Positions 50,429-51,542 of a stretch of 64,000 bases of DNA are shown piece after piece. The translations under genes were made by a program, and so were the position numbers. The stretch's first letter is position 1. Each line of letters opens with the position of its first letter. The DNA is from Escherichia coli (GTDB lineage: Bacteria; Pseudomonadota; Gammaproteobacteria; Enterobacterales; Enterobacteriaceae). The stretch lies in NCBI RefSeq assembly GCF_003334355.1, contig NZ_QOWP01000001.1. One strand, given 5' to 3'. Under the pieces are notes generated by a model. The model was not told the DNA's origin. It saw only the letters and a program-made list of their open reading frames with translations, and made no database searches.

Positions 50429-50697
50429 CCGTCAAGCAAACTGTTGAAATCACAAACAAGCTGGGCATGCATGCCCGGCCTGCAATGAAGCTGTTTGAAT
50501 TAATGCAGGGTTTTGACGCTGAAGTGCTGTTACGTAATGACGAAGGCACCGAGGCTGAAGCCAACAGCGTTATTGCGCTGCTGATGTTGGATTCTGCCAA
50601 AGGACGGCAGATTGAAGTTGAAGCGACCGGTCCACAAGAAGAGGAAGCACTGGCCGCCGTTATCGCCCTCTTTAACTCTGGTTTTGATGAAGATTAA
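50425..50697 (+). CDS. ptsO: Phosphocarrier protein NPr, 90 aa
   Basis: ORF track 50425..50697; HPr-like fold, ATG overlaps rapZ stop. Confidence 0.95.
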
Positions 50698-50842
50698 TCT
50701 TCATCACTTTGACATTCAAATCCCTTCAAGCTCCCCCGGCAATAAGAAAAGCGCGTACTGAAATCGTTCTCAATCAACGTCATTTGTACATTTTGTGCGC
50801 TTTTCACTTTCAGAAGAACCTTAAGAAAACCTTAAGAAGCAT

Positions 50843-50859
50843 TGTTTAGGTTTTGTTTA
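50843..50859 (+). promoter_or_regulatory. Candidate PhoP box upstream of yrbL
   Basis: TGTTTA-GGTTT-TGTTTA direct hexamer repeat with 5-nt spacer, about 50 bp upstream of the yrbL ATG; yrbL is a known PhoP-activated gene. Confidence 0.55.
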
Positions 50860-50909
50860 AGTTAATCGACCATACTGGAGATCGTCAGAAAATATTTCCA
50901 GGAGATGGC

Positions 50910-51542
50910 ATGATTCGCTTATCTGAACAAAGTCCCCTGGGCACCGGAAGACATCGGAAATGTTATGCGCATCCGGAAGATGCCCAACGCTGTATCAAGA
51001 TTGTCTACCATCGTGGCGATGGTGGCGATAAAGAGATCCGCCGTGAGTTAAAGTATTACGCGCATCTTGGTCGTCGGTTAAAAGACTGGAGTGGAATACC
51101 GCGCTATCACGGTACCGTTGAGACGGATTGCGGAACCGGTTATGTCTACGATGTGATTGCCGATTTCGACGGCAAGCCCTCCATTACGCTGACCGAATTT
51201 GCTGAACAATGCCGTTACGAAGAAGACGTTGCACAACTGCGCCAGTTACTGAAACAGCTGAAGCGTTATTTGCAGGATAACCGTATCGTGACGATGTCGC
51301 TGAAGCCGCAGAATATCCTCTGTCATCGCATCAGTGAGTCAGAGGTTATCCCCGTCGTCTGCGACAACATTGGTGAAAGCACATTGATTCCACTGGCAAC
51401 CTGGTCGAAGTGGTGTTGTCTGCGTAAGCAAGAGCGGTTATGGAAACGATTTATCGCCCAACCGGCGCTGGCTATTGCCCTGCAGAAAGATCTGCAACCT
51501 CGTGAGAGCAAAACGCTGGCCCTCACTTCGCGCGAAGCTTAA
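50910..51542 (+). CDS. yrbL: PhoP-regulated protein YrbL (kinase-like fold), 210 aa
   Basis: ORF track 50853..51542; trimmed to ATG giving [24 protein letters not shown]. Confidence 0.85.

Follow-up and report, generated by a model that had tools for sequence, protein, structure and literature searches.

The yrbL promoter of Escherichia coli raises the question of what role, if any, belongs to a tandem repeat lying directly upstream of its PhoP box. In the DNA analysed here, a stretch of 64 kb that we refer to as the window, open reading frames for PtsN, RapZ and NPr are followed by a 212-bp intergenic spacer and by a 210-aa ORF with its ATG at 50910, the setting being the npr/yrbL/mtgA region as annotated in E. 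coli BE2-5 and K-12. The promoter is 100% identical to that of BE2-5, where the ORF is labelled 'PhoP regulatory network protein YrbL' (PF10707), and the K-12 ORF is b3207. The yrbL coding sequence occupies 50910-51542 on the plus strand (210 aa plus stop). A preliminary description of this DNA had regarded the repeat as not explained by the PhoP box, and had proposed either a second regulator site or an UP-like element. The analysis leads us to conclude that the repeat is the already known PmrA/BasR repressor box of the yrbL promoter, described in 2005 and present in regulatory databases.

The tandem repeat and its resemblance to PmrA/BasR boxes

An exact search places ACCTTAAGAA at 50818-50827 and again at 50829-50838, in agreement with the preliminary description, and no other copy exists on either strand of the 64-kb window. 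Each copy contains the hexamer CTTAAG (50820-50825 and 50831-50836). The repeat unit had been given as 10 bp, but the copies are offset by 11 bp and the unit is a perfect 11-mer, so that the complete feature is a head-to-tail direct repeat of two copies of AACCTTAAGAA at 50817-50838, to which Tandem Repeats Finder likewise assigns a period of 11. No other perfect two-copy tandem with a 9-13-bp unit exists in the window and 100 shuffles yielded none, so that the repeat exceeds the chance expectation. The pattern CTTAAG-N5-CTTAAG occurs a single time in the window, as does its degenerate form YTTAAK-N5-YTTAAK. The repeat ends 4 bp 5' of the PhoP box, whose perfect TGTTTA-N5-TGTTTA match at 50843-50859 was confirmed.

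A period of 11 bp, made of two hexamers and a 5-bp gap, is the DNA-reading mode of response regulators of the OmpR/PhoB family. Within this family, the PmrA/BasR box is defined by two xTTAAk hexamers separated by a 5-bp spacer, and PmrA binds it as a head-to-tail dimer (PMC3973317, PMC10570014). The yrbL repeat has both hexamers in the expected form (YTTAAK, or xTTAAy, as a direct repeat), and they are separated by the 5-bp spacer AAAAC (50826-50830), a spacer length that is retained in every ortholog having a box. The TAA core of the PmrA half-sites is contacted by residues T187, N188, V192 and H195 (PMC10570014); both yrbL hexamers hold TTAA, and the TAA is kept in 13/13 aligned orthologs, being read on the minus strand in Citrobacter amalonaticus (CCTAAT). 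On the basis of fit to the definition, matrix score, conservation and literature, we assign the PmrA/BasR box to 50820-50836 on the minus strand, where it reads CTTAAG-GTTTT-CTTAAG (CTTAAG-AAAAC-CTTAAG on the plus strand).

For comparison, boxes were extracted from the K-12 loci of three established BasR targets, each oriented with its gene: arnB (CTTAAGGTTAAGTTAAT), eptA (CTTAAGGTTGGCTTAAT) and pmrR (CTTAAGGTTCACTTAAT). The yrbL box on the minus strand (CTTAAGGTTTTCTTAAG) shares with these activating boxes of arnB (pbgP), eptA (pmrC) and pmrR the hexamers, the 5-bp spacer and a GTT directly after the first hexamer, the two patterns being CTTAAG-GTTnn-sTTAAT and CTTAAG-GTTTT-CTTAAG, respectively. 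A 25-nt-wide matrix built from these three sites only scored the yrbL repeat at 18.0 bits on the minus strand versus 6.9 bits on the plus strand. The minus-strand box ranks first among about 128,000 positions in the window (runner-up 14.8 bits), and it is likewise the top match in 12/12 orthologs, where the best matrix match within 250 nt of the ATG falls on the minus strand at -82/-83. Since CTTAAG is a palindrome, the call on orientation rests on the spacer and flanks. We therefore hold with moderate confidence, from these bases and the three-site matrix, that the yrbL box is probably reversed relative to activating PmrA boxes. The GTT spacer is lacking in the pbgP box of Klebsiella and Salmonella, which reads CTTAAT-ATTAT-CCTAAG (PMC3973317).

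The option of a second regulator site raised in the preliminary description has thus found its regulator: by sequence the repeat is a PmrA/BasR box, and the literature reports both binding and repression by PmrA. Given this identity and these reports, the repeat does not count as unexplained. We put at roughly 90% the probability that it is a PmrA/BasR operator that lowers PhoP-dependent transcription of yrbL, with binding and repression taken from the cited literature.

Promoter geometry and published regulation

The PhoP box, TGTTTA-GGTTT-TGTTTA (50843-50859, plus strand), is in direct orientation and overlaps the -35 region, the position of a class II activator. It is the sole match to (T/G)GTTTA-N5-(T/G)GTTTA in the 64 kb, and it ends 11 nt before the -10 hexamer CATACT (50871-50876, plus strand), thereby occupying the -35 slot of yrbL; the -10 hexamer is invariant in 13/13 aligned promoters. 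In Salmonella, the S1-mapped yrbL promoter has the same CATACT with identical spacing and a 32-nt leader (PMC3335776), and by homology the E. coli transcription start probably lies at about 50878-50879. The attribution of this box to PhoP and Mg2+ in the preliminary description is well founded, as yrbL belongs to a set of 23 PhoP-activated promoters examined with DNase I footprinting, its box being listed 11 nt from the -10 (PMC3335776), and in a gel shift PhoP-P bound the identical box of Shigella (PMC5775216). Scans of 50600-51000 on both strands gave no promoter or terminator predictions; the empty promoter scan is consistent with an activator-dependent promoter having a poor -35. An Rfam scan of the intergenic region returned a sub-threshold snoRNA chance match only, and no known RNA element.

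The centre of the PmrA box lies 82 nt upstream of the yrbL ATG. Counted from the start deduced by homology, the PhoP box would extend over about -36 to -20 and the PmrA box over about -59 to -43. The four hexamers start at 50820, 50831, 50843 and 50854, and thus run through both boxes in an 11/12/11-bp register, with a gap of 6 bp between the boxes versus 5 bp inside each box and a measured start-to-start distance of 23 bp from one box to the other. The PhoP box is built like the PmrA box, as a direct hexamer repeat with a 5-bp spacer and an 11-bp period that is bound by an OmpR/PhoB-family protein, but its hexamers are TGTTTA instead of CTTAAG, and it binds a different protein with the opposite effect at yrbL.

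An activating PmrA box replaces the -35 element (PMC10570014), with 10-12 nt between its end and the -10 at K-12 arnB, pmrR and eptA. In contrast, this distance is 34 nt at yrbL, whose box does not overlap the -35, is best read on the strand opposite to the gene and, according to the literature, mediates repression. From its position and best orientation, the yrbL box groups with repressing sites like that of Salmonella pmrD, and not with the activating ones. As a separate observation, the pmrR promoter of K-12 (positions 3056-3110 of locus L020) and the yrbL promoter have the same unusual -10, CATACT, located 10-11 nt after a regulator box.

The pmrD gene of Salmonella enterica (Kato et al. 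2003, cited in PMC3335776, PMC2681069) has the same general architecture, with one PhoP box in direct orientation across the -35 (architecture I), a repressing PmrA box upstream of it, and a bi-fan or negative feed-forward wiring; it is reported to be repressed by PmrA through this PmrA box (PMC3335776, PMC2681069). The two promoters differ in that the boxes are about 38 bp apart in pmrD versus 23-24 bp at yrbL, where the PmrA and PhoP hexamers form one continuous 11/12/11-bp array. Upstream of the K-12 pmrD gene (positions 11539-11648 of locus L021), no match to YTTAAK-N5-YTTAAK with two or fewer mismatches was found.

Binding of PmrA to the yrbL promoter and its repression were reported by Zwir et al. 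2005, as cited in PMC3335776, PMC4196223 and PMC2681069; we take this from the later citing statements, which come mostly from one laboratory. In both E. coli and Salmonella the PhoP and PmrA sites of the yrbL promoters are described as about 24 bp apart (PMC2681069), a database-derived table gives 'BasR, PhoP' as the regulators of yrbL (PMC4145685), and PmrA is stated to repress yrbL and pmrD (PMC4196223). Among 20 PhoP targets of Salmonella, yrbL is the first transcribed yet the weakest expressed (PMC4196223). In a 2026 transcriptome of E. coli B adapted to Fe(III), yrbL ranks with the most strongly down-regulated genes, and basR, eptA and arn are up (PMC13405929), a direction consistent with the expected repression by PmrA. 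The drop in yrbL could also reflect Fur, for which a ChIP-seq site and Fur-dependent regulation at yrbL are reported (PMC4676285). Between 50698 and 50930 there is no convincing Fur box: the best candidate matches the 19-mer consensus at 11/19 positions, a score also reached at 320 places in the window.

Two further conserved elements flank this region. A third block, A-TTGTACATTTnGTGCnCTTT, lies at 50782-50803, upstream of the PmrA box by about 17 bp, and is invariant in 13 aligned promoters; S. enterica, Pluralibacter, Superficieibacter and Enterobacter share its core, TGTAC-N5-GTGC, which begins with TCTAC in Siccibacter. In the yrbL literature we found no regulator assigned to it. A rough comparison of this block with the consensuses for sigma-54 (-24/-12), CRP, OmpR, RstA, MlrA and the marbox gave at most one half of each, and a hairpin or terminator was rejected, as the 5' arm is unconserved. 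The block may be the site of an additional regulator. Downstream, the yrbL leader contains GTCAGAAAATATTTCCAGGAG (50884-50904), well conserved across genera, with GAAATATTTC, a near-palindrome, immediately preceding the Shine-Dalgarno sequence.

Conservation, natural variants and competing explanations

The yrbL promoter was found in 5426/5426 complete E. coli genomes, with 90-100% identity. Across six divergent E. coli variants the 17-mer of the box is invariant, and the changes fall on the one or two bases directly 3' of the second hexamer (AAG, AGG or AGA) and all along the upstream spacer. We also aligned 13 promoters from E. coli, the cryptic Escherichia clades, E. albertii, four Citrobacter and S. 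enterica subsp. arizonae. In this alignment, which has a mean column identity of 66%, TTAAGAAAACCTTAA (TTAAG-AAAAC-CTTAA) is invariant, and so is the core of the PhoP box, whereas conservation does not extend to the bases that turn the E. coli repeat into a perfect 11-mer. As these bases vary, the target of selection is the hexamers together with the spacer. The exact canonical box CTTAAG-GTTTT-CTTAAT is found in E. albertii and three Citrobacter, and C. amalonaticus has CTTAAG-GTTTT-CCTAAT on its minus strand.

More distant homologs were retrieved by protein search followed by contig look-ups. On the minus strand the box reads TTTAAG-GTTTT-CTTAAT in S. enterica, CTTAAG-TTTTT-CTTAAG in Siccibacter, CTTAAG-GTTTT-CTTAAT in Pluralibacter and GTTAAG-GTTTT-CTTAAG in Superficieibacter. 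The box of Cedecea colo and that of an Erwinia sp. have their GTTTT on the gene strand and are located farther from the PhoP-like box. One copy in Enterobacter hormaechei has a decayed box (CTTATG-TAAGT-CTAAAG) beside an intact PhoP box, and a PmrA box is absent from two non-syntenic homologs with about 50% identity. The degenerate copy in E. hormaechei means that a PmrA box at yrbL is not universal.

Three observations on individual sequences are also recorded here. E. coli EC476 has two substitutions in and around the PhoP box (TGTTTAGATTTCGTTTA, aligned to 50843-50859), one in the spacer and one changing the second hexamer from TGTTTA to CGTTTA, with the PmrA box unchanged. In E. coli 720632 (NZ_CP025842.1, about 478-777 of the locus) an IS66-family element lies directly after the CATAC of the yrbL -10; this strain is a natural yrbL promoter knockout, as the element separates the PmrA box, the PhoP box and the -10 from the gene. 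Contig NZ_JUET01000135.1 (420 bp), from the assembly of Tannerella forsythia ATCC 43037, codes for part of a YrbL protein with 98% identity to that of E. coli, and almost certainly represents contamination of the assembly by E. coli DNA.

The pattern of conservation bears on the explanations that compete with a PmrA operator. A perfect head-to-tail duplication is what replication slippage is expected to produce, and the perfect 11-mer is indeed limited to E. coli and close relatives, so that the repeat might be a functionless 11-bp product of chance or slippage. We give this almost no credence: the hexamers and spacer recur at the same position in at least seven genera, in intergenic DNA that is otherwise largely unalignable. 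Moreover, the copies outside E. coli diverge as PmrA half-sites do (CTTAAG and CTTAAT), and the repeat is the best match to the PmrA matrix in the 64 kb. The UP-like element of the preliminary description, an A/T-rich sequence that would strengthen the promoter by engaging, upstream of PhoP, the alpha C-terminal domains of RNA polymerase, is very improbable too. The repeat does lie at about -59 to -43, the usual place of such elements, and contains the A-tract GAAAAC. The UP consensus is reportedly nnAAAWWTWTTTTnnnAAAnnn at -59 to -38 (credited to Estrem and co-workers, 1998), and against this form the yrbL sequence matches 7/14 specified positions, or 9/14 with a 1-nt shift, but 8.7% of the window positions score as well or better, which makes the match unremarkable. 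Conservation is also specific to the hexamers: columns G126, C131 and C132 of the hexamers and spacer are invariant and the A-rich flanks are variable, the signature of a base-specific protein site. In addition, the region is reported as repressive, not stimulatory (PMC3335776, PMC4196223), and PhoP promoters with the architecture of yrbL are reported to be independent of the alpha C-terminal domain (PMC3335776).

It is also highly unlikely that another regulator acts mainly here, instead of PmrA or beside it. RcsB was considered, since TAAGAAAACCTTA loosely resembles an RcsB box. The RcsB/RcsAB box is a 14-bp element, TAAGAATATTCCTA, with both halves conserved; in a manual comparison, a weak test against the RcsAB consensus, TAAGAAAACCTTAA matched at 8/14 positions, but the conserved right half fails and the spacing is wrong, and this candidate was rejected. 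For QseB, a paralog of PmrA, cross-talk between QseBC and PmrAB in E. coli is documented (PMC10729948), and QseB may be an additional binder. Against either protein as the main regulator, the repeat matches the PmrA box exactly and has parallels at known BasR targets, and we found no literature that ties yrbL to QseB or RcsB.

Mode of repression and significance

For the PmrA/BasR operator, the following mechanism can be proposed. At low Mg2+, PhoP~P bound to the box over the -35 activates yrbL transcription, as others have shown. Activation of BasS/PmrB by Fe3+, Al3+, mild acid or the PhoP-induced connector PmrD would yield PmrA~P, a dimer of which would bind the two CTTAAG hexamers just upstream and lower PhoP-dependent transcription, and expression of yrbL would thus require active PhoP together with inactive PmrA. 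The Salmonella chain in which PhoP acts through PmrD and PmrA to repress yrbL constitutes an incoherent feed-forward loop, which would give early but low expression.

As the box lies about 23 bp (about two helical turns) upstream of the activating slot and is apparently inverted, PmrA~P would not contact sigma region 4, unlike at arnB. Instead, it most likely causes a steric clash that affects either the upstream PhoP protomer or the contacts made by RNA polymerase farther upstream than PhoP, if not both. From the position, orientation and register of the box, anti-activation is the most likely mode of repression by PmrA at yrbL. The alpha C-terminal domain is reported to be dispensable at the related mgtA promoter (PMC3335776), which weakens a model in which PmrA blocks a contact of this domain and, by analogy, would mildly favour interference with PhoP itself.

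The 11/12/11-bp register of the hexamers would place the PmrA and PhoP dimers next to each other on the same face of the helix. A more speculative proposal, which we consider unlikely as it stands, is that the two boxes form one composite element of four hexamers, on which inverted PmrA~P abuts PhoP~P and represses by contact or exclusion. If so, the orientation and phase of the box, rather than its occupancy alone, would set repression versus activation, and the flipped and more distant boxes of Cedecea and the Erwinia sp. would be natural variants with a different outcome.

The finding has little weight as a discovery, given that the yrbL repeat was already documented. What is added here is minor, and consists of the probable reverse orientation of the box, its continuous register with the PhoP box, its phylogenetic depth and the flipped or decayed natural variants, all read from sequence. 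Nevertheless, the PmrA box accounts for the response of yrbL to both Mg2+ (through PhoQ/PhoP) and Fe3+ (through BasS/BasR), and for its behaviour as the earliest yet weakest PhoP target. The yrbL promoter is thus a compact natural test case of how position and orientation turn an activator of the OmpR/PhoB family into a repressor.
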